Positions 22,651-35,836 of a stretch of 64,000 bases of DNA are shown here, piece by piece; position 1 is the first letter of the stretch; each line of letters starts with the position of its first letter. Source of the stretch: Gemmatimonadales bacterium (GTDB lineage Bacteria > Gemmatimonadota > Gemmatimonadetes > Gemmatimonadales > GWC2-71-9); assembly GCA_037189525.1 (NCBI GenBank), contig JBBCJC010000003.1:416001-480000 (forward strand), given 5' to 3'. The position numbers and the translations under genes are program-made. The notes under the pieces are model-generated. The model saw nothing but the letters and a program-made list of their open reading frames with translations. It did no database searches and was not told the DNA's origin.

Positions 22651-23205
22651 ATGCGAATTCGGACTTTCGCTCTGGCGCTCGGTGTCATGGTCACGGCTGC
22701 CTGCGGTAAAAAGGAGCCCGAGGTCATTCCGACGCCGACTCCCCCGCCCGCAAGCCCGACCCCGGCGCCGACGCCTCCTCCGCCGCCACCGCCGGCAACG
22801 GACGGTGATGCGGCAGCGGCTGCTGAGCATGCCGAAGTAACCCGCCTGCTGCAGCAGGTGATCTACTTCGAACTCGACAAAGATGAGATTCGGGCCGAGG
22901 ATCGGCCGGTGCTCGAGCAGAAGGCGGCGATTCTGCAAGCCAATCCGTCGTTGCGGATCCGGATTGCCGGACACGCCGACGAGCGCGGCTCCGACGAGTA
23001 CAACCTCGTTCTCGGCACCCGCCGCGCCACCTCGGCCAAGCGGTTCCTCGAGACCCGCGGCATCGACGGCAGCCGGATCGATATCATCTCGTACGGCGAA
23101 GAGCGGCCGGCCAACCCGGCGTCGAACGAAGGCGCCTGGGCCCAGAATCGTCGCGATGAGTTCGAAATCACGAGCGGCGGCGCCCGCCTGGTGAGACCGC
23201 GGTGA
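22651..23205 (+). CDS. pal: Peptidoglycan-associated lipoprotein
   Basis: Lipobox TAAC, IYFELD, GHADERGSDEYNLVLG, SYGEERP, AQNRR. Confidence 0.93.
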   Translation: MRIRTFALALGVMVTAACGKKEPEVIPTPTPPPASPTPAPTPPPPPPPATDGDAAAAAEHAEVTRLLQQVIYFELDKDEIRAEDRPVLEQKAAILQANPSLRIRIAGHADERGSDEYNLVLGTRRATSAKRFLETRGIDGSRIDIISYGEERPANPASNEGAWAQNRRDEFEITSGGARLVRPR

Positions 23206-23981
23206 ACCGACTGTTGCTGGTGGCCCTCGCGGCCGGCCTGACCGCGGGATGCGCCACCAAAGGCTCAGTGCGCCAGGTCGAGACGCAGGTACTGGTGCTC
23301 CGCGCAGAGACGGCGCGCCAGGACTCGGTGCGGGCTGCGGAGCTGGCGCGCATCATTCGCCTCCAGCAACAGGCCATCGATTCACTCAACGCGTCACGTC
23401 AGGCCATCCGGGTGCTGGAGGCCCGGGTAGGCAGTGACCTGACCGACGTCCAGCGTCAGCTGCTGCAGATTCAGGAGTTGTCGGGCCAGAGTCAGCGGCA
23501 GCTGTCGCTCCTCAAGGCGCAGCTGGATGCCCGTGCCGAGGCGCAGTCGCTGGGGCCGGTAGATTCGACCCGCCCGGTCGATTCGGCGGCCCCGCCGCCC
23601 GCGGCCTCGGCCGAGCAGATGTATGTCGGCGCATTGCAGCAGTATCAGCGGGGAAGTCCGGGCGTGGCCCGCCGGGCGTTCCTCGAATTCCTGCAGCAGT
23701 ATCCGACCCATCCGAACGTGCCGGATGCGATGTACTGGGTGGCGGAATCGTTCGAGGCCGAGTTGCCGGATACGGCTATTGCGCGGTTCCAGCAGCTCCA
23801 TGCGAAGTTCCCCCAGTCCCGGCGCTCACCGACCGCGTTGTACAAGATCGGTTACGTGCTCGAGACGGTAAAGAAATCGCCGGCCCAGGCTCGGGCGGCG
23901 TACCAGCGGCTGGTGACCGAGTATCCTCGTTCGGAAGATGCCGACTTGGCCAGGGCGCGACTCGAGAGCCTCAAACCCTAG
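23202..23981 (+). CDS. cpoB: Tol-Pal associated CpoB/YbgF (coiled coil plus TPR, lipoprotein)
   Basis: LTAGC, coiled coil, FLQQYP...PDAMYW, PTALYKIG, LVTEYPRS; directly after pal. Confidence 0.85.
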   Translation: MNRLLLVALAAGLTAGCATKGSVRQVETQVLVLRAETARQDSVRAAELARIIRLQQQAIDSLNASRQAIRVLEARVGSDLTDVQRQLLQIQELSGQSQRQLSLLKAQLDARAEAQSLGPVDSTRPVDSAAPPPAASAEQMYVGALQQYQRGSPGVARRAFLEFLQQYPTHPNVPDAMYWVAESFEAELPDTAIARFQQLHAKFPQSRRSPTALYKIGYVLETVKKSPAQARAAYQRLVTEYPRSEDADLARARLESLKP

Positions 23982-23996: not shown

Positions 23997-26900
23997 ATGG
24001 CGCGGTCCAGTGGAGAAATGCCGTTCCTCGATCATCTCGAGGAACTCCGATCGCGATTGCTCAAGGCGGTTCTCGCCCTGGTCATCGCGATCGGTATCGG
24101 CATATGGGTAGTCGACCATTTTCAGCTGGTCGACATCCTGCAGCGCCCCATCCTTCCCCTGCTCGAGGGACGCCATCTCGTCATTCAGAGCCCGACCGAG
24201 CAGTTCATGATCCTGCTCAAACTTGGCTTCATCGTCGGGCTGGTGCTCGCGTCTCCCGTCATCATCTGGCAAATCTGGGCCTTCCTGTCGCCGGCCCTCT
24301 ACTCGCGTGAAAAAAAGGCCATCGTTCCGGCCCTGTTCGTCGGCGTGGCGCTCTTCATCACCGGGGCCACCCTGAGCTTTATCTACATCGTGCCCCAGGC
24401 TCTGCGCGTGCTGCTCGGCATGGGGCCTGGCACCTTCGAGATGCTGATCACCTGGCGTTCCTACTTTGCCTTCGTGATGCAGGTGGTGCTGGCGATGGGG
24501 CTCTCGGCCGAGTTACCGCTGCTCATCATCATGCTGGCGGTGCTCGGCGTGGTCACACCGTCGATGCTGGGCCGGTTCCGGCGCTTTGCGATCGTGCTCT
24601 CCTTTGCCGGCGGGGCCATCCTGTCACCGGGTGGGGATGTCTTCTCGATGGTGCTGATGACGGCGCCGTTGATCGTGCTGTACGAGGTCGGCTATCTCGG
24701 AGCCTGGATCGTTCACAAGCGGCGGACCCGGGCGGCGGCCGCCGCGGCGTCGGCCGCGATGTTCGTCTGGTTCCTCCTGCCGGCGCCGTTGGAAGCGCAG
24801 CAACCGCCTCCACCTCCGCCCCGACAGGCCCAGGACACTACCCGGCGGCAGGCAGGCGACTCGGCCGCCGCCAAGCGCATGGGACTCCCGTCGGCGCCGA
24901 AGCGGTCGTTTCCGGCGGCGGATTCGCTGTTGCTCGACCTGCAGGAACTCGAGGGATACGAGATTACCCGGTACCGGGCGGACACGGCGCAGGTCAGCCC
25001 GCGGGACAAGGCGGTTCAGCTGGGCGGCAACGCGATGACCGAGCGCACCGACGCAGTGCTCGAGGCGGATCGCATCTTCTACCGCGAGGGCGATTGCCGT
25101 TTCGAGGCGCAGGGCGAGCCGCATCTCTTCCAGCAGGGTACCGTGGTGGTCGGTCGCACCGTGTTGTACAACACCTGTATCGAGCGCGGACTGGTACAGG
25201 ACGGCCGGACCAGCTTCCCGCAACAGGGAGCCAACTGGATCGTCAGCGGTCACATCGCGATGGACTCGACCGCCAGGCGCGTCTTTGCCAGCGCGCGCGA
25301 AATCACCAGCTGCGATCTGCCCGATTCGCACTATCACTTCCGATCCAAGGAACTGCGCTGGGTCGGAGGCTCGACCATGGTGGCGCGTCCAGCCGTGCTC
25401 TACATCCGCGATGTGCCGATTGCCTGGGTGCCGTTTCTCTTTCAGGACACCAAGCGGGGCCGTCGCTCGGGGATTCTGATTCCCGAACTCGGCTTCAACG
25501 ATATCGTGCGCCCGAGTCGCAACTACAACCGCACGGTGAAGAACCTCGGATACTATTGGGCGGCGAGCGAAAAGGTTGACCTACTCGCCCGCTTCGACTG
25601 GTACTCGAATCGGTACATCGAGTTCGGTGTCGAAGGGCAGTATCGCTGGATCGATCAGTTCATGCGCGGCGCGGTGAGCTTTTCCCGGGCGCAGGAAATC
25701 GGCGGCTCGACCAACACGCGTGTCGTCTGGAATCACAACCAGACCTTCAGTGTCACGACCAAACTGAACGTCAGTCTCGACTACTCGACCAACTCGTCGA
25801 TCATCCGGCGGAACTCGATCGATCCGCGGATGACCACCCAGCAGATCCGAAGTTCCGCCAACCTGAATCGCCAGTTCAGTTGGGGCAACATGGCACTCGG
25901 TGGTACCCGAACACAGAATGTCACGGACGGCAGCGGCCGGATGACGGCGCCCAGCCTAACGCTGTCGCCCAAGCCGATCGACTTCGGCTCGGCGGTAACC
26001 TGGTCGCCGGACATCAATTTCACCAACGACCTCGCCTTCAAGCAGCCGATGCCGTCGGTGCTCGTGCCGCGGGGACCCGGCGGAATCGTCGATACGCTGG
26101 CAGTAACCGGCGGGAGCCGATTGAGCCGGTTCAGTATGAACACGCCGCTCCGCATCGGCAGCTTTCAGTGGACCAACAGCGTCAGTCTGATCGACAGCGA
26201 CTCGACCGGGCTTCGTGAGGAACTGATCACGGTTCCGAATGAGAGTACAGAAGACCCGACCGACTCGGTCACCATCCGCCGGGTGCGCTCCGGTGGGTAC
26301 GGCAGCGAGTTCGATTGGAACACCGGGATCAACTTGCCGATTCTCTTCCGCACCTCGTGGAAGATCACGCCGACGCTGGGGATCACCAACACGACGTCTC
26401 AGGCGCCGTTCGCGGTGCGCAATGCGCGCACGGCGGGCGAGTACGTCCGCCAGGGCAAACGGTTCCAGTTCGGTCTGTCGGCCGCGCCGACGTTCTACGG
26501 ATTTTTCCCGGGCATCGGGCCGTTGGACCGAATTCGTCACACCGTGTCGCCGTCGATCAGCTACAACTATAGCCCGGCGGCGGACATCCCGATCGAGTTT
26601 GCCCGCGCCATCACGCCGGTCGGGCAGCCGCTGGTGCTGCGCAGCATCCCGACCCAGTCGATCAGCCTGACGCTGAACCAGAATTTCGAGGCCAAGACCA
26701 AGCGGCCGGCGGGTGACACGACCGATACGCGCGTCCGGAAGATCCGCCTGCTGAGCATCAGCACCAGCGGTCTCGCCTACGATCTCGAGAAGGCCAAGTT
26801 GCCGGGCCGGACCGGCTGGTCGTCGCCGACGCTGAGCAACTCGATCATGAGCGATCTGGTGCCGGGGCTCAACCTGTCGATGACGCACGATCTCTTTGCC

Positions 26901-27530
26901 GGGGCGTTCGATCCCGCGACGGGCCGGGTAGGGGCGTTCGACAGCAGCACCGCGCGATTCAGCCCGTATCTGTCGGGGGTGACCGCCAGCTTCTCGCTGA
27001 CCGACGGCACTTTCCGGTCGATCGGTCGCTTGCTTGGCTTGGTTTCGGACGACGATCCGCCGGAGCAGCAGCAGCGCCAGGCGTCCGTTCCCGGGGCGCC
27101 CACCACGGTGCCCGGGCAACCGCAGCAGCAGTTCGGCATGATGGATGACATGCGGCGGGGGACGGGCTTTACCAGCAACCAAAACTTCGTGCGCGGACAG
27201 CGGGGCTTCAACGCCAGCGTCAACTACACCTTGAACCGGACTCGTCCGATTCCGGGGGTGGCGGAGGTGCCGAGCCGCAGCAATCTGTCGCTCAACACGA
27301 GCTTTGCGCCGACGCAGTTCTGGCAGGTGAGTTGGAACACGCAGTACGACGTGACCAATCGGACCTTCGAGGCGCAGCAGGTCAATCTGACCCGCGATCT
27401 CCACGACTGGCGGGCCACCTTCTCGTTCCTCCGGTCGCCCAACGGGAACTTCTCGTTCTCGTTCCTGATCACCCTGATCGACCTGCCCGATCTCAAGTTC
27501 GACTACCGCCAGAGCTCGATTCAGCCCTGA
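23997..27530 (+). CDS. tatC: Fusion ORF: twin-arginine translocase TatC (aa ~1-243), internal signal-like linker, then LptD-like LPS-assembly beta-barrel (aa ~268-1177)
   Basis: TatC: MPFLDHLEELRSRL, WQIWAFLSPALYSREK, ELP, RRFAIV, SPGGD, LYEVG. LptD: ITSCDLPDSHY, PAVLYIRDVPIAWVP, RRSGILIP, LGYYWA, C-terminal RDLHDW...DLKFDY. One uninterrupted frame. Confidence 0.85.
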   Translation: MARSSGEMPFLDHLEELRSRLLKAVLALVIAIGIGIWVVDHFQLVDILQRPILPLLEGRHLVIQSPTEQFMILLKLGFIVGLVLASPVIIWQIWAFLSPALYSREKKAIVPALFVGVALFITGATLSFIYIVPQALRVLLGMGPGTFEMLITWRSYFAFVMQVVLAMGLSAELPLLIIMLAVLGVVTPSMLGRFRRFAIVLSFAGGAILSPGGDVFSMVLMTAPLIVLYEVGYLGAWIVHKRRTRAAAAAASAAMFVWFLLPAPLEAQQPPPPPPRQAQDTTRRQAGDSAAAKRMGLPSAPKRSFPAADSLLLDLQELEGYEITRYRADTAQVSPRDKAVQLGGNAMTERTDAVLEADRIFYREGDCRFEAQGEPHLFQQGTVVVGRTVLYNTCIERGLVQDGRTSFPQQGANWIVSGHIAMDSTARRVFASAREITSCDLPDSHYHFRSKELRWVGGSTMVARPAVLYIRDVPIAWVPFLFQDTKRGRRSGILIPELGFNDIVRPSRNYNRTVKNLGYYWAASEKVDLLARFDWYSNRYIEFGVEGQYRWIDQFMRGAVSFSRAQEIGGSTNTRVVWNHNQTFSVTTKLNVSLDYSTNSSIIRRNSIDPRMTTQQIRSSANLNRQFSWGNMALGGTRTQNVTDGSGRMTAPSLTLSPKPIDFGSAVTWSPDINFTNDLAFKQPMPSVLVPRGPGGIVDTLAVTGGSRLSRFSMNTPLRIGSFQWTNSVSLIDSDSTGLREELITVPNESTEDPTDSVTIRRVRSGGYGSEFDWNTGINLPILFRTSWKITPTLGITNTTSQAPFAVRNARTAGEYVRQGKRFQFGLSAAPTFYGFFPGIGPLDRIRHTVSPSISYNYSPAADIPIEFARAITPVGQPLVLRSIPTQSISLTLNQNFEAKTKRPAGDTTDTRVRKIRLLSISTSGLAYDLEKAKLPGRTGWSSPTLSNSIMSDLVPGLNLSMTHDLFAGAFDPATGRVGAFDSSTARFSPYLSGVTASFSLTDGTFRSIGRLLGLVSDDDPPEQQQRQASVPGAPTTVPGQPQQQFGMMDDMRRGTGFTSNQNFVRGQRGFNASVNYTLNRTRPIPGVAEVPSRSNLSLNTSFAPTQFWQVSWNTQYDVTNRTFEAQQVNLTRDLHDWRATFSFLRSPNGNFSFSFLITLIDLPDLKFDYRQSSIQP

Positions 27531-27728: not shown

Positions 27729-29927
27729 ATGAATCTCGATAAGCTCAAAGAATCCGCGCGGAAGTACGAGCAAAACGGCCAGTGGCGCCAAGCCATTGAC
27801 GTTTACAAGAAGGCATTGCGCGAATTCGAAGAGTCGGGCGAGGGAGTCCTGGACCCGTCGCTGTACAATCGCATCGGCGATCTCGAGATGCGGGTCAACG
27901 ACACCAGCGCGGCCATCCGGGCCTACGAGCAGGCCTCCGATCTCTACACCGAGCAGGGTTTCTTCAACAACGCCATCGCGCTCTGCAGTAAGATCCTGCG
28001 TGTCAATCCGGGCCGCACCGCAACCTACCTCCGCCTGGCTCAGCTCAACGCCCGCAAGAACTTCGTCGGCGATGCGCGGAAGAATCTGACCGAATACATC
28101 GAACGGATGACGGCGCTGCATCACCCCGCTGAGGCCGTCGACGCCGTCAGGATCTTCGTCGGGCAGTGCGCCGAGAATCCTGATATCCGGGCCATGCTGG
28201 TGGAGTTGCTGCGAGGCGGCTCGTTCGATCCGTCGATGCGGGAGCCGTTCGACCAGCTGATTCGTGAGCTGGAACGCCAGGACACCCCGGACGAGGACGA
28301 CGCGGGCGACGGAGAGGTCGCGGTCGACACCGATGCCGCGCGCCGCGTGGACGCCGCCTCCGGGCTGGTCTTTCTGGATCTGGAGGGCGGCCAGGCACGG
28401 GACACGGGCTACGTCAGTCCGGTCGAGGGACTCGAAGTCATCCACCAGGAGCAGGAGCCCGAAGAGCCCTGGCGCCAGGATACCGACCGCGTCGACGGCT
28501 TCGAGTACACCGGTCTCGACCCGGTTGATACCGAGATCGGGGCTTCGGTCGAGTTCGTGACCGAATCGGCCTTCGAGGTGGGTGAGCCGCTCGATCTCGA
28601 AGGGGAGGACGCCGACCCGCTCGATATCGATTCGTATCCGAGCGTCGAGCTGGACGAGGCATTGGCCGCAGCCAGCGGGGATTCCGAGGTGGAGTCCCTC
28701 GACGAAATCGCCCTCACTCCGACCGCCGGACTCGAGGTGCTCGAGCCGATCGATCTGGAGACGACTCCCGAGGTCGAGTTGCCGCTCGAAGAGGGCGAGG
28801 CGCTGGCGGTCGAGGTGGATCTGGACCTCGACACCGACGAACCGCCGGAAGCAGCCGGCGACCTCGTCTTTCTGGTCGAGAGCGACGACGTGGCAGCGCC
28901 AGCTGCGCAGGAGACGTCGCGGACGGATGGGCTGTCGTTCATCTCGGATGAAGTCGATGAGCCAGAGGCCGAAGCGGAGGCCGAACCGGCTCGGGATCTG
29001 GCGCAATTTGCCGAGGAGCAGGCCCGGGTCTTGTTGACGGTCGGCGACCGTACGGCTGGCATGGCGGCGCTCGACGAAGCGCTCCGCCAGTACGAGGGAT
29101 CGGCGCGGCTGGCCGAAGCGCTCCGGGTGGCCGATGAGTTGATCCGGTTCGAACCGGATGCGATCTATCGTTACCAGAAGCGGGTCGAGATCGCCTACCG
29201 GGCGGGAGACCGCGGCGCCATGCTCGATTCGTATCTGGGCCTGGCCGATGCGCTGGCGCGGAGCGGGGGGCTCGAGCACGCGGTCACCGTCTATCGCCGG
29301 GTGCTCGAACACGATGCCGACAACGTGACGGCGCGCACGGCGCTGATCCGCCTGGAAGCTGCGCTGGCGCCTCCACCGCCGCCGCCTCCGCCCGCCGCAT
29401 CGTTCGTCGATCTGGGCAGCCTGATCCTCGATGAGCCGGCGGTTCGGGACACCCGGATGCGGGTCGACCAGGGCGCGCCGATCGAGAACGAGGACGAGGC
29501 GTTTCACGAGGCGCTGGCCCAGTTCAAGCGCGGTATCGACGAGAACATCGACGCCGAGGACTTCCAGGCGCACTATGACCTGGGCATTGCCTTCAAGGAA
29601 ATGGGGCTGCTCGACGAGGCGATTGCGCAGTTCCAGAAGGCGCTGCGGTCGCCGGATGGCCGCCTCAAGACCTCGGAACAGCTGGGCATTGCCTTCTACG
29701 ACAAATCGCGCTTCGCGATCGCCGAAGCCGTGCTGCGCAGGGCCATCGAGAGCCTGCCGGGCGGCGACGAGGAAAAGATCGGTTCGATCTACTGGCTCGC
29801 GCGGTCACTCGAGGCGCAGCGGCGTTTCGAAGAAGCGCTCCGATTCTATGAACGGGTCCTGGCCGTCGACATCCGCTTCCTGGATGTGGGTGACCGGGTC
29901 CACCGCCTGACTTCGGGCGCCTCATGA
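27729..29927 (+). CDS. TPR protein with long acidic linker and C-terminal TPR cluster
   Basis: N-terminal TPRs, D/E-rich middle, C-terminal AHYDLGIAFKEMGLLDEAIAQFQKA and following TPRs. Confidence 0.8.
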   Translation: MNLDKLKESARKYEQNGQWRQAIDVYKKALREFEESGEGVLDPSLYNRIGDLEMRVNDTSAAIRAYEQASDLYTEQGFFNNAIALCSKILRVNPGRTATYLRLAQLNARKNFVGDARKNLTEYIERMTALHHPAEAVDAVRIFVGQCAENPDIRAMLVELLRGGSFDPSMREPFDQLIRELERQDTPDEDDAGDGEVAVDTDAARRVDAASGLVFLDLEGGQARDTGYVSPVEGLEVIHQEQEPEEPWRQDTDRVDGFEYTGLDPVDTEIGASVEFVTESAFEVGEPLDLEGEDADPLDIDSYPSVELDEALAAASGDSEVESLDEIALTPTAGLEVLEPIDLETTPEVELPLEEGEALAVEVDLDLDTDEPPEAAGDLVFLVESDDVAAPAAQETSRTDGLSFISDEVDEPEAEAEAEPARDLAQFAEEQARVLLTVGDRTAGMAALDEALRQYEGSARLAEALRVADELIRFEPDAIYRYQKRVEIAYRAGDRGAMLDSYLGLADALARSGGLEHAVTVYRRVLEHDADNVTARTALIRLEAALAPPPPPPPPAASFVDLGSLILDEPAVRDTRMRVDQGAPIENEDEAFHEALAQFKRGIDENIDAEDFQAHYDLGIAFKEMGLLDEAIAQFQKALRSPDGRLKTSEQLGIAFYDKSRFAIAEAVLRRAIESLPGGDEEKIGSIYWLARSLEAQRRFEEALRFYERVLAVDIRFLDVGDRVHRLTSGAS

Positions 29928-30918: not shown

Positions 30919-31203
30919 ATGGCAGGAGGAGGTGCGCGCGGCCCCCGTCGGCCCAGATTCTACGCTGCGGTACTCACCACCGGGTTCATGCTGGGTGGAT
31001 TCCTGCAGGGTTTTCTGTCGAAGTTCCTGCCCGACAGCCCCGCCAAGGACGTCTTTACCAGCGCGTGGCGTGGCGAATTCGGACCTGTCAAAGTAGATCT
31101 CATGGTTGTAGACTTTACCCTGGGACCGCTCGGCGTCGAGGTATCCGTGCTGAGTCTGTTCGGGGTCCTGATCGCGTACATGATTGCGCGATCGCTCTTT
31201 TAG
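30919..31203 (+). CDS. Small membrane protein (DUF4321-like)
   Basis: Two hydrophobic segments around a [11 protein letters not shown] hairpin; GGAGG RBS. Confidence 0.6.
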
Positions 31204-31216
31204 TAGGAGCCCTGGT

Positions 31217-31471
31217 ATGATCGGGAATCTGGGTTTTGGCGAGATTCTGGTCCTCGCCGTCATCGTACTGCTCGTGTTCGGCGCGAAGCGCCTGCCGGAA
31301 ATTGGCCAGTCGCTCGGCAAGGGTATTCGGGAGTTCAAGAAGAGCTTCTCGGAAATCGGCGACAACGTGACCAGCGGTCTGAACGAGCCGCCGTCATCCA
31401 ATGCGCGCCAGATCGACTCGGCGCACTCCCAGGCCCCCACTTCGAGCGAGCCGAAGCGGCTGTCGCAGTAA
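31217..31471 (+). CDS. tatA: Twin-arginine translocase TatA/TatE
   Basis: [42 protein letters not shown]. Confidence 0.93.
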
Positions 31472-33631: not shown

Positions 33632-35836
33632 ATGGCGCCATCCCGCGAAATCGAGAAACTGCAGCGCCGATGGCAGGAGAACCCATTGGGGCTCACCTTC
33701 GCCCCTCTGGCGGAGGCGTATCGTAAGGAAGGGATGTACGAGGACGCGTTGGAGCTGCTCAGCATCGGGCTGGCGCAGCATCCCAACTATGTCCCCGCGC
33801 ACATCGTCCGCGGTCGATGCTATGTCGACACCCATACGGACACGGCAGCGGAAGAAGCCTTCCAGCGGGTTACCGAACTCGATCCCGAAAATGTCATTGC
33901 GCTGAAGGGGCTCGCGGACCTGGCGGAAAAGGGCGGACGCTTTGACGAGGCGATTGCCCGGCTGGAGCGCTTGCTGGAGTTCGACCGGAGCAACGACGAC
34001 GCGCGCGCTCAGGCCGACCGGCTTCGGGCCGCGTTGGCGCCGGTGGTCGAAACTCCGGTTGCTCCGCCGGAACCCGCACCGGCGCCGATCGAGGCCGAAC
34101 TGCCCGAGCCGACGATTCCGGAGTTCCCGCGGGTCGAGGCCGACGCCGTGCCCGATGCGGAGCCTGCGCTCGACGAGCCGGATCCGCTGGTCGACCAGGC
34201 GCGTGCGGCGGTGGTGGACATCAGTGCCGCCGACGTCGAGGTCATCACCTATCGGCCGCTCGAGTTGGTCGCCTCGGCCGATTCGGAGTATCAGCTGGCC
34301 GACGCTGCTGCGGATCTGGTGCCGCCGCCGTCGGAGGATCTTACCGCCGCTTCAGGACTGGCGGATTCGGTTACGGAGCAGGCAGATGCCGTTGCGGAGC
34401 GAGCGGATGGTGCTGCGGATCAGATCGGCCTTGCCGGGGATCGGAATGCCGTTGCTGCGGAACAAGCCGACCCCAGTGTGGAGCAGGTAGATCCTGTTGC
34501 GGATCAGGGTAGTGTCGTTGCGGACCAGGCTGATGGCGCGGTGGGGCAGGATGGTCTCGCTGCAGGGCAGAATGGTCCCGTTGCGGAGCAGGCTGACCTC
34601 GTGGCAGAGCAGATTGACGGGGGCGTGGGACCGGATAGCTCTGTTGCCGAGCGGGTTGATTTCGTTGCGGAGCAGGTCGATCGCGGCGGGGAGGGTGTAG
34701 ATCTCGTTGCGGAGCAGGTTGGGGTTGTGGCGGAGCAGATTGATCGCGGCGCGGAACAGGTAGATCCCGTCGTCGACCAGGCCGCTCTCGATGCGGGGCA
34801 CGTGAATCCCCTTGCAGGGCAGGTTGATCTCGCTACGGAGCGGGAGGATGCTGCTGCTGAACACCCTGGCCCTACTGGGGAGCGTGAGAGCACTGCTACG
34901 GAACTGCCCAGTCTTGTTGCAGACCAGGGCGACCGGACCGGGGAACAGACAGGTCCTGTGGCGGATCTGGTCGGCGGGCCGGTCACCGAAACCGTTTCTG
35001 CGGTGAGTGAGCCAGTCCCGCCGGCGATTGCCACCACCGATAGCCCGATCGGGGATGGCTCGGTCGCAACCGACTCTCCAGCCGGGGCGTTTGCTCAGGC
35101 GGAGTCGGCGGATGGCTCGGATGTCGCAGCTGTCGACGAAGTAGTTGCGGAGCTTCCGGCGGTCGCATCTCTATCTGCGACGCCTGCCGATCTCGAGACC
35201 GATGCATCGATCGCCCCCGAGCCGGTACTGCCGGCCGAGGCCGCGTACATCGAAGCCGACGAACTCGACGAGACCGCCTTCGACGTCGATGCGCTCGATC
35301 CGGAACGCGACGATGCCGAAGCAGTTGCCGGCGTCGAGGCGGAGCCCGATCTCGTCGTGACCGAAACGATGGCCGAGCTCTTCATGCGGCAGGGTCACCG
35401 TACCCTGGCGCTGGCCGTGTATACGCAGCTTTCGGAGCGCGACGGAGACAATCCGCGGATTCGGGGCGCGATCGAGCAGTTGCAGGCCGAGTTGCGGCCC
35501 GCGTCGAGCGTGGGTATTCCGGCGTACGCGGCGGTCCTGACGGGTGGCCAGTCGGTGCGCGCCTTCTTCGAGCACCTGCTGGCGGCCACTCGGCCGGTTG
35601 CTCCGGATCGCCAGGCCACGGGGTTGTCGCTCGGAGCGGTCTTCGGAGAAGAGCGGGCGACACCAGCCACGTCCGCGCCCGCCGAGGATCGCGGTCCGAG
35701 TTACGACGAGTTCTTTGCCGAGGAGCAGCCGCCTGCGGAGCTTCCCAAGCGGCCCGACCGTGAAGGGGCGGCGGTCGATGCGGCCGCCGAAGATCTCGAG
35801 CACTTCACCTCCTGGCTCAAGGGGCTCAAGCGCTGA
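33632..35836 (+). CDS. TPR protein with long acidic, repeat-containing linker
   Basis: N-terminal TPRs ([22 protein letters not shown]), acidic middle, [14 protein letters not shown] helix, C-terminal [14 protein letters not shown]. Confidence 0.8.
34370..34978 (+). repeat. Intragenic degenerate tandem repeat, 29 units of 21 bp (7 aa, consensus about VAEQxDx)
   Basis: Units such as GTTGCGGAGCAGGCTGACCTC and GTTGCGGAGCAGGTCGATCGC stay in exact 21-nt register from 34370 to the unit starting at 34958. Confidence 0.8.

Follow-up and report, generated by a model that had tools for sequence, protein, structure and literature searches.

A single stop-free frame of 1177 residues in a Gemmatimonadales genome was found to run from TatC, the six-helix core of the twin-arginine translocase, through a signal-peptide-like linker into the outer-membrane beta-barrel protein LptD (Table 1; the window is the whole stretch of DNA that was analysed, 64,000 nucleotides long). 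The fusion is real and family-wide, being present in most sampled members of the family, and from the sequence of its junction we consider it likely that the fused gene encodes a two-protein precursor, that is, a polyprotein processed by signal peptidase I. What such a polyprotein calls for, namely two proteins in one frame with an internal signal in between, was present. TatC and LptD_2 were each matched once in the genome, which is 98% complete, and both of these matches lie in the fused frame. The junction consists of the basic stretch K241-R245, the hydrophobic core A246-L261, the segment P262-A267 and then Q268 and Q269 followed by a run of prolines. An earlier note on this DNA had given the same order of segments, and its coordinates agree with the frame and translation, in which K241 begins at 24717, A267 finishes at 24797 and Q268 begins at 24798.

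Table 1. Features of the fused tatC-lptD gene, its neighbours in the window and related genes elsewhere in the genome.
Feature	Position	Strand	Basis
Fused tatC-lptD open reading frame, 1177 aa	23997..27530	+	Frame reading; sole TatC and LptD_2 matches in genome
TatC part, residues 1-240, six-helix twin-arginine translocase core	23997..24716	+	Pfam/NCBIfam, 4b4a profile match, alignment columns
Basic residues K241-R245 at the cytoplasmic end of TatC helix 6, putative n-region of internal signal	24717..24731	+	Sequence, net charge
Hydrophobic core A246-L261 (h-region)	24732..24779	+	Sequence and junction comparison
c-region P262-A267 (Leu at -3, Ala at -1), behind which signal peptidase I is predicted to cut (nt 24797)	24780..24797	+	99-junction residue counts and control
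Q268, predicted first residue of mature LptD, probably pyroglutamate	24798..24800	+	Genome-wide Q enrichment, glutaminyl cyclase gene; modification predicted from the accessible text of PMC5837995
LptD, residues 268-1177, with a Pro-rich leader that varies, an N-terminal domain rich in beta structure and a large beta-barrel	24798..27530	+	PF19838, AlphaFold, Foldseek
cpoB/ybgF-like gene, upstream neighbour, last of tol-pal cluster	23202..23981	+	Domain matches
tatA-like gene, partner of TatC part, outside the fusion	31184..31471	+	Domain matches
PF05096 glutaminyl cyclase gene	L167:1501-2250	-	Domain match, genome search
vWA + TPR gene in a MoxR/DUF58-like/vWA operon, internal basic-hydrophobic-AVA-Q junction	L180:3283-4896 (G000:C5)	-	Genome scan

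Both halves of the chain look intact. The TatC part matched PF00902 over residues 12-224 (E 3e-58, 197.5 bits against a cut-off of 25.1) and TIGR00945 over residues 11-229 (187.6 bits against a cut-off of 132.7), and it stayed under the cut-off of the enterobacterial model PRK10921. A profile built from 43 fused TatC parts matched the Aquifex TatC 4b4a with E 1e-70 and the alignment covered the core. In the 43-row alignment H13, E16, R18, F96, E105 and P211 were invariant and D214 was present in 42 rows. The accessible text of PMC3712464 describes TatC as a protein of six helices and F94, E103 and D211 of the E. coli protein as critical residues; when mapped by motif and by eye, their counterparts were present in 43, 43 and 42 of the 43 rows, respectively. 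An AlphaFold model of TatC with the junction, made free of membrane, extended helix 6 and the core as one continuous helix of falling confidence and did not display a seventh membrane helix.

The C-terminal part matched LptD_2 (PF19838) above the cut-off with E 7e-38, and its AlphaFold model (885 residues, from a 54-row alignment) had a mean pLDDT of 80.9. The top Foldseek matches of this model were all LptD structures (E 1.4e-24, TM about 0.5, identity 11-12%). A PF04390 search of the source genome found no LptE; this model detects LptE in only 3 of 14 control genomes and a divergent LptE is possible. The two products of the fused gene are probably ordinary proteins. No TatA/B/E match besides the tatA-like gene of the window was found in the genome; the Tat system may have two components, TatA and TatC. 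The window also encodes two long acidic TPR proteins, at 27729-29927 (+) and 33632-35836 (+), the former of which gave a partial match, far under the cut-off, to the type IV pilus SgmX model. A related-locus search returned five loci, which sufficed to assign the group to Gemmatimonadota, the named relatives being Gemmatimonadota assemblies, and in an exact protein-cluster look-up neither protein was matched. Only a fraction of 0.06-0.08 of the words occurred in RNA runs.

The junction carries the features of a Sec/signal peptidase I signal, namely a basic n-region, a hydrophobic core, a small residue at -1 and a small or aliphatic residue at -3, as called by hydropathy and pattern heuristics, and this signal is internal (residues 241-267) and not at the N-terminus of the translated chain. 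There is no Cys in the source junction and +1 is Gln, so a lipoprotein (signal peptidase II) signal was not found there. The conservation of these features was assessed in 99 fused junctions that were inspected directly (96 from family f1 and 3 from family f2, after ten duplicate, partial or off-target loci had been dropped), which are related sequences and hence not 99 independent trials. Two of them (G162 and G097) come from genomes flagged as unpublished and the conclusions are independent of both. The best 9-residue hydrophobic window after TatC helix 6 was picked without regard to Gln, and the motif [LAVS]-x-[AGS]-Q was sought within 15 residues of it. All 99 junctions carried the motif. 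Of 550 hydrophobic peaks taken from the TatC domains of these same chains, 5 were followed by it, and 1000 shuffles yielded it in 16.0 ± 3.5 stretches (27 at most). An initial rule that took the first Gln as the site passed 92 of the 99; the other seven contain a Gln ahead of the site and passed once the following Gln was taken, and the site was redefined accordingly.

Every one of the 99 junctions has the basic stretch and the hydrophobic core together with the motif, the net charge of the basic stretch being +2 to +7 in 98 of them, and the distance from the last charged residue to the site is 15-32 residues (median 21). The residue at -3, which played no part in picking the site, was Leu in 49, Ala in 38, Val in 8 and Ser in 4 junctions and nothing else. 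The composition at -1 (Ala 87, Gly 10, Ser 2), like that at +1, follows by construction from the picking, and the residue at -2 was variable (3.5 bits). The rows of alignment A1 were cut 25 residues past the chosen site, so its near-invariant A267 and Q268 columns are biased and were not used as independent evidence. The source core lies at the weak end of the family, with a best 9-residue mean Kyte-Doolittle value of 2.44 in a fused range of 2.38-3.62 (median 2.98). Beyond the site the proline run is not conserved; conservation is confined to -3, -1, +1 and, partly, +3. The earlier note had proposed conservation of linker hydrophobicity and of the cleavage motif among fused homologues as a test of its reading, and both are kept in 99 of 99. 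Judged from this pattern, the linker resembles a substrate of signal peptidase I that has been maintained.

The distribution of the fusion was examined in a draw of 201 genomes of the family, in which 150 of 197 TatC matches were listed and the frame length served as a proxy for fusion. Among the 150 matches listed, 115 TatC frames had at least 1000 residues, 8 had 500-999 and 27 had fewer than 500. The 27 short frames comprised 14 separate, adjacent tatC and lptD genes, 6 frames at a contig edge (3 of them with the fused junction), 6 TatC genes without lptD behind them, and one with the fused junction followed by a later in-frame stop. In the draw from the order, frames of 1000 or more residues outside family f1 occurred, among the matches listed, in three genomes, all of family f2, and all were fused on inspection. 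TatC frames did not exceed 451 residues in any of the 43 genomes sampled from families f4-f12.

The separate tatC and lptD (LptD_2) genes of other Gemmatimonadota stand in the same order after tol-pal, with a signal ending in a small residue and Gln and often with an overlapping stop and start; unlike the fused gene, they have their own TatC stop and their own LptD start. Among 39 split loci, an automatic test recovered the same motif at the LptD start in 35, and two of the four misses have the motif when read by eye, another seems to be frameshifted and the last carries Cys at -1. A start-like codon overlaps the TatC stop in 25 of the 39. In split relatives this basic stretch closes TatC and LptD begins just after it, which bears out the suggestion of the earlier note that the basic tail of TatC doubles as the n-region of the LptD signal. 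In five family genomes (G105, G160, G202, G042 and G037) tatC has moved, and lptD, bearing a signal of its own that ends in a site of the same kind, comes immediately after the cpoB-like gene.

Several loci depart from these arrangements. TatC genes not followed by lptD were seen at L059, L060, L092, L096, L097, L098, L106 and L112, and the genomes G115, G195 and G029 each have a lone TatC besides a fused one. The split forms of genus g53 (L054, L062, L087 and L089) have no ATG, GTG or TTG for LptD where TatC stops; as read by eye, LptD may begin at a conserved GTG that lies, in the other frame, some eight codons before that stop. At L091 (G079) the junction is intact and an in-frame TAA occurs early in the LptD part, and at L108 (G210) an intact junction is followed by a frame that ends early in the LptD part after 717 residues; each is a broken gene or an assembly error.

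A FastTree tree was made from TatC together with the N-terminal part of LptD, with 136 rows (97 fused and 39 split), omitting 12 TatC-only loci, the broken L091 and two short rows. Family f1 formed one group with weak support at its base (0.30). Nested in this fused family were seven split groups, five of them beside fused relatives with support of at least 0.996. Three of the seven are single genomes, which could be assembly errors, and the other four comprise 2-7 genomes each. As read from these sequences, the fusion would have been re-split at least seven times (three possibly assembly errors) with reuse of the same signal at the LptD start. The fused genomes of family f2 were found in two places beside split relatives, which suggests that their fusions are separate in origin. 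The repeated reversion of the internal segment to an N-terminal signal indicates that the segment stayed functional and that the link was not required. Because the fusion is family-wide and yet reversible, the link between TatC and LptD looks like tolerated drift more than a necessity binding two machines, and the fusion looks dispensable.

The choice of residues at the junction follows a habit of the genome as a whole. In genome-wide counts, for which genes and signals were called heuristically, 237 of 406 signal peptidase I-like N-terminal signals ended in [LAVS]x[AGS]Q, as against 5 of 116 lipoprotein signals, and Gln followed 213 of 554 [LAVS]xA sites in c-regions, as against 3.3% in protein interiors. 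The residue at -3 of the N-terminal signals was mostly Leu (99), Ala (90) or Val (37). The earlier note had taken x-x-A followed by Gln to fit signal peptidase I processing, and this can be refined to L/A-x-A followed by Gln, which matches the signal-peptide habit of the genome. Two LepB-type peptidases are encoded in it. In Bacteroidetes, as described in the accessible text of PMC5837995 and PMC10653852, Gln is exposed by signal peptidase I and then cyclised to pyroglutamate, a habit known as the Q-rule. The Gemmatimonadota genome resembles this, to the extent covered by those texts, in having Gln at +1 in the majority of predicted signal peptidase I substrates and a glutaminyl cyclase gene, but its enzyme, a PF05096 member, may or may not be of the Porphyromonas type, and its cyclisation of Gln is predicted. 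The junction and the genome-wide signals suggest a Q-rule in Gemmatimonadota, a phylum with no mention in the accessible Q-rule text of PMC5837995. The retention of Gln at +1 makes most sense if Gln becomes the N-terminus, and we infer that it is kept as the future N-terminus. By analogy, mature LptD probably starts with pyroglutamate, and looking for a free QQPPPP peptide by N-terminomics would miss it.

The likely course of events may be drawn as follows. A small frame-shifting change would have removed the overlapping tatC stop and lptD start. TatC helix 1 would target the ribosome and SecYEG would insert the six helices, so that the basic stretch behind them stays on the cytoplasmic side. 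TatC proteins have a cytoplasmic C-terminus, and a hydrophobic segment after it would enter in the N-in/C-out orientation; the core after the basic stretch would insert like a normal signal peptide and send the unfolded LptD chain through Sec. Signal peptidase I would then cut after A267, glutaminyl cyclase would cap Q268, and the 910-residue LptD would reach the outer membrane by the chaperone/BAM route. TatC would retain a seventh helix (267 residues in all) or lose it by trimming. The fusion would be tolerated because the cut restores both products.

If the chain were instead uncleaved or only partly cleaved, the core would be a true seventh TatC helix and LptD would remain tethered to it, the Pro-rich linker spanning from the inner to the outer membrane; we regard this as improbable. 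A permanent anchor needs no residues at -3, -1 and +1 that copy the signal-peptide rule of the genome, and the junction is, over 19 residues, less hydrophobic than TatC helix 6 (median 1.73 vs 1.97). The disordered Pro-rich linker that comes after the site could serve as the spanning arm, but its length and sequence vary freely. Likewise, the frame is intact across most of the family, but the repeated splitting and the loss of tatC from the locus show that LptD needs no tether. A precedent for incomplete cutting exists in wild-type LtaS, which is largely full-length despite its signal peptidase site according to the accessible text of PMC11323550.

A second possibility, to which we give a small chance, is that LptD is translated separately from a hidden codon near the end of TatC helix 6, the long product being minor or a TatC with a dispensable tail. 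The search for such starts covered ATG, GTG and TTG. An in-frame codon of this kind giving a signal of 15 or more residues was present in 80 of the 99 junctions, in 49 of these after the first basic residue and in 12 with an SD-like motif, but the positions of the candidates were scattered and there was none in the other 19, the source junction included. The ATG at 24759 lies within the source core, 13 codons before the site, where it would leave 13 residues of which none is basic; it is not conserved, being CTG in a 94%-identical relative. GTG made up the same share of Val codons at the junction (111 of 209) as in the TatC body (1222 of 2309; both 0.53), and Met was rarer at the junction than in the TatC body. 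In the split members of genus g53, LptD does appear, by eye, to begin within the final codons of tatC, at a GTG in the other frame. In the fused loci no stop codon closes the TatC part, which means that the fused chain is made in any case. A hidden LptD start was not supported, with no ATG, GTG or TTG giving a signal of 15 or more residues in the source junction and no rise in GTG use.

There is a very slight chance that the halves are separated by some other protease (rhomboid, RseP-type or self-cleavage), or that LptD, through the twin arginine tethered to it, is exported as a Tat substrate by its own TatC. The conserved pattern is of the signal peptidase I type, which speaks against another protease. 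RR does occur in 91 of the 99 fused n-regions, but it is likewise present in 30 of 39 split TatC tails. The Tat signal consensus is S/T-R-R-x-F-L-K; RRxF was found in none of the 99 and the relaxed consensus in six. Moreover, beta-barrels cross the inner membrane unfolded through Sec, which counts against Tat export. The proposal of LptD as a Tat substrate was dropped on the absence of RRxF and the commonness of RR in unfused tails. That a stop codon was lost in a single metagenome assembly is next to impossible. The source genome is a 16-contig assembly, but the fusion stands in 99 inspected loci of different genomes, and independent contigs from runs X2, X6 and X9, which belong to three studies distinct from that of the possible source run X1, cross the join with zero indels.

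The signal peptidase-processed polyprotein that we favour has few relatives. To our knowledge, few descriptions exist of natural polyproteins in bacteria that the cell cleaves with its own signal peptidase. Bradyrhizobium japonicum FbcH, studied by Thony-Meyer and colleagues, is reportedly a cytochrome b/c1 precursor from one gene that has an internal signal and is split at a site of the Ala-x-Ala type. The fused gene resembles FbcH in joining a polytopic membrane protein, an internal signal sequence and a second protein in one bacterial gene. FbcH joins two subunits of one inner-membrane complex, whereas TatC and LptD belong to unrelated machines of two different membranes and the second product is an outer-membrane beta-barrel. 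In Staphylococcus aureus LtaS, SpsB cuts behind five helices, between A217 and S218, and frees the extracytoplasmic part, the processing being partial and regulated (PMC11323550 and PMC12445088, accessible text). As far as those texts go, LtaS is alike in having a type I signal peptidase site behind a multi-helix membrane domain, at which cutting of TatC-LptD is predicted, and it differs in being one enzyme and not two genes fused via a retained signal peptide. Viral polyproteins offer an analogy only, in which internal signals restart translocation and host signal peptidase separates the products; they differ in belonging to the eukaryotic ER and to viral genes. Among the papers listed in searches outside most subscription journals and supplements, none was seen to describe a TatC-LptD fusion, and PMC3827258 contains no occurrence of fusion, fused or LptD.

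The genome was also scanned for membrane proteins in which this internal pattern precedes a soluble tail, which left 3 of 81 candidates: tatC-lptD, a vWA + TPR gene and an HTH-membrane-hydrolase gene. We tentatively call the vWA + TPR gene BatB/BatC-like and the gene that follows it in the operon BatD/BatE-like. The junction motif of the BatB/BatC-like gene was present in 23 of 25 family loci as a raw count, the exceptions being one stop and one Ile at -3, and on its sequence it is a second candidate polyprotein. By eye, the BatD/BatE-like gene (L180:988-3279, minus strand) starts with a signal and continues with a membrane helix and a further signal-like segment, internal and ending in VAA-Q, ahead of a TPR-like part. 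The gene at L181:1534-3141 (minus strand, G000:C1) holds HTH and membrane helices, a signal-like segment ending in LWA-Q and an alpha/beta hydrolase in one frame. We put at about even the chance that the family uses signal peptidase I polyproteins recurrently, with TatC-LptD, the BatB/BatC-like protein and probably the BatD/BatE-like protein each carrying a retained internal signal whose end is a small residue followed by Gln.

Fused genes of this type are liable to be annotated as one half only and, if the reading is true, predictors of N-terminal signals would overlook an entire class of exported proteins. One chain that unites a translocase of the inner membrane with a barrel of the outer membrane across most of a large family, with natural reversions as controls, raises the questions whether LptD can be delivered co-translationally, whether a seventh helix is tolerated or shed by TatC, and whether fusing coupled envelope genes becomes nearly neutral through signal peptidase I. 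If the family does use such polyproteins recurrently, a large essential outer-membrane barrel would be exported co-translationally behind a six-helix inner-membrane protein, the synthesis of LptD would be fixed 1:1 with the Tat translocase, and TatC would work with a seventh helix.
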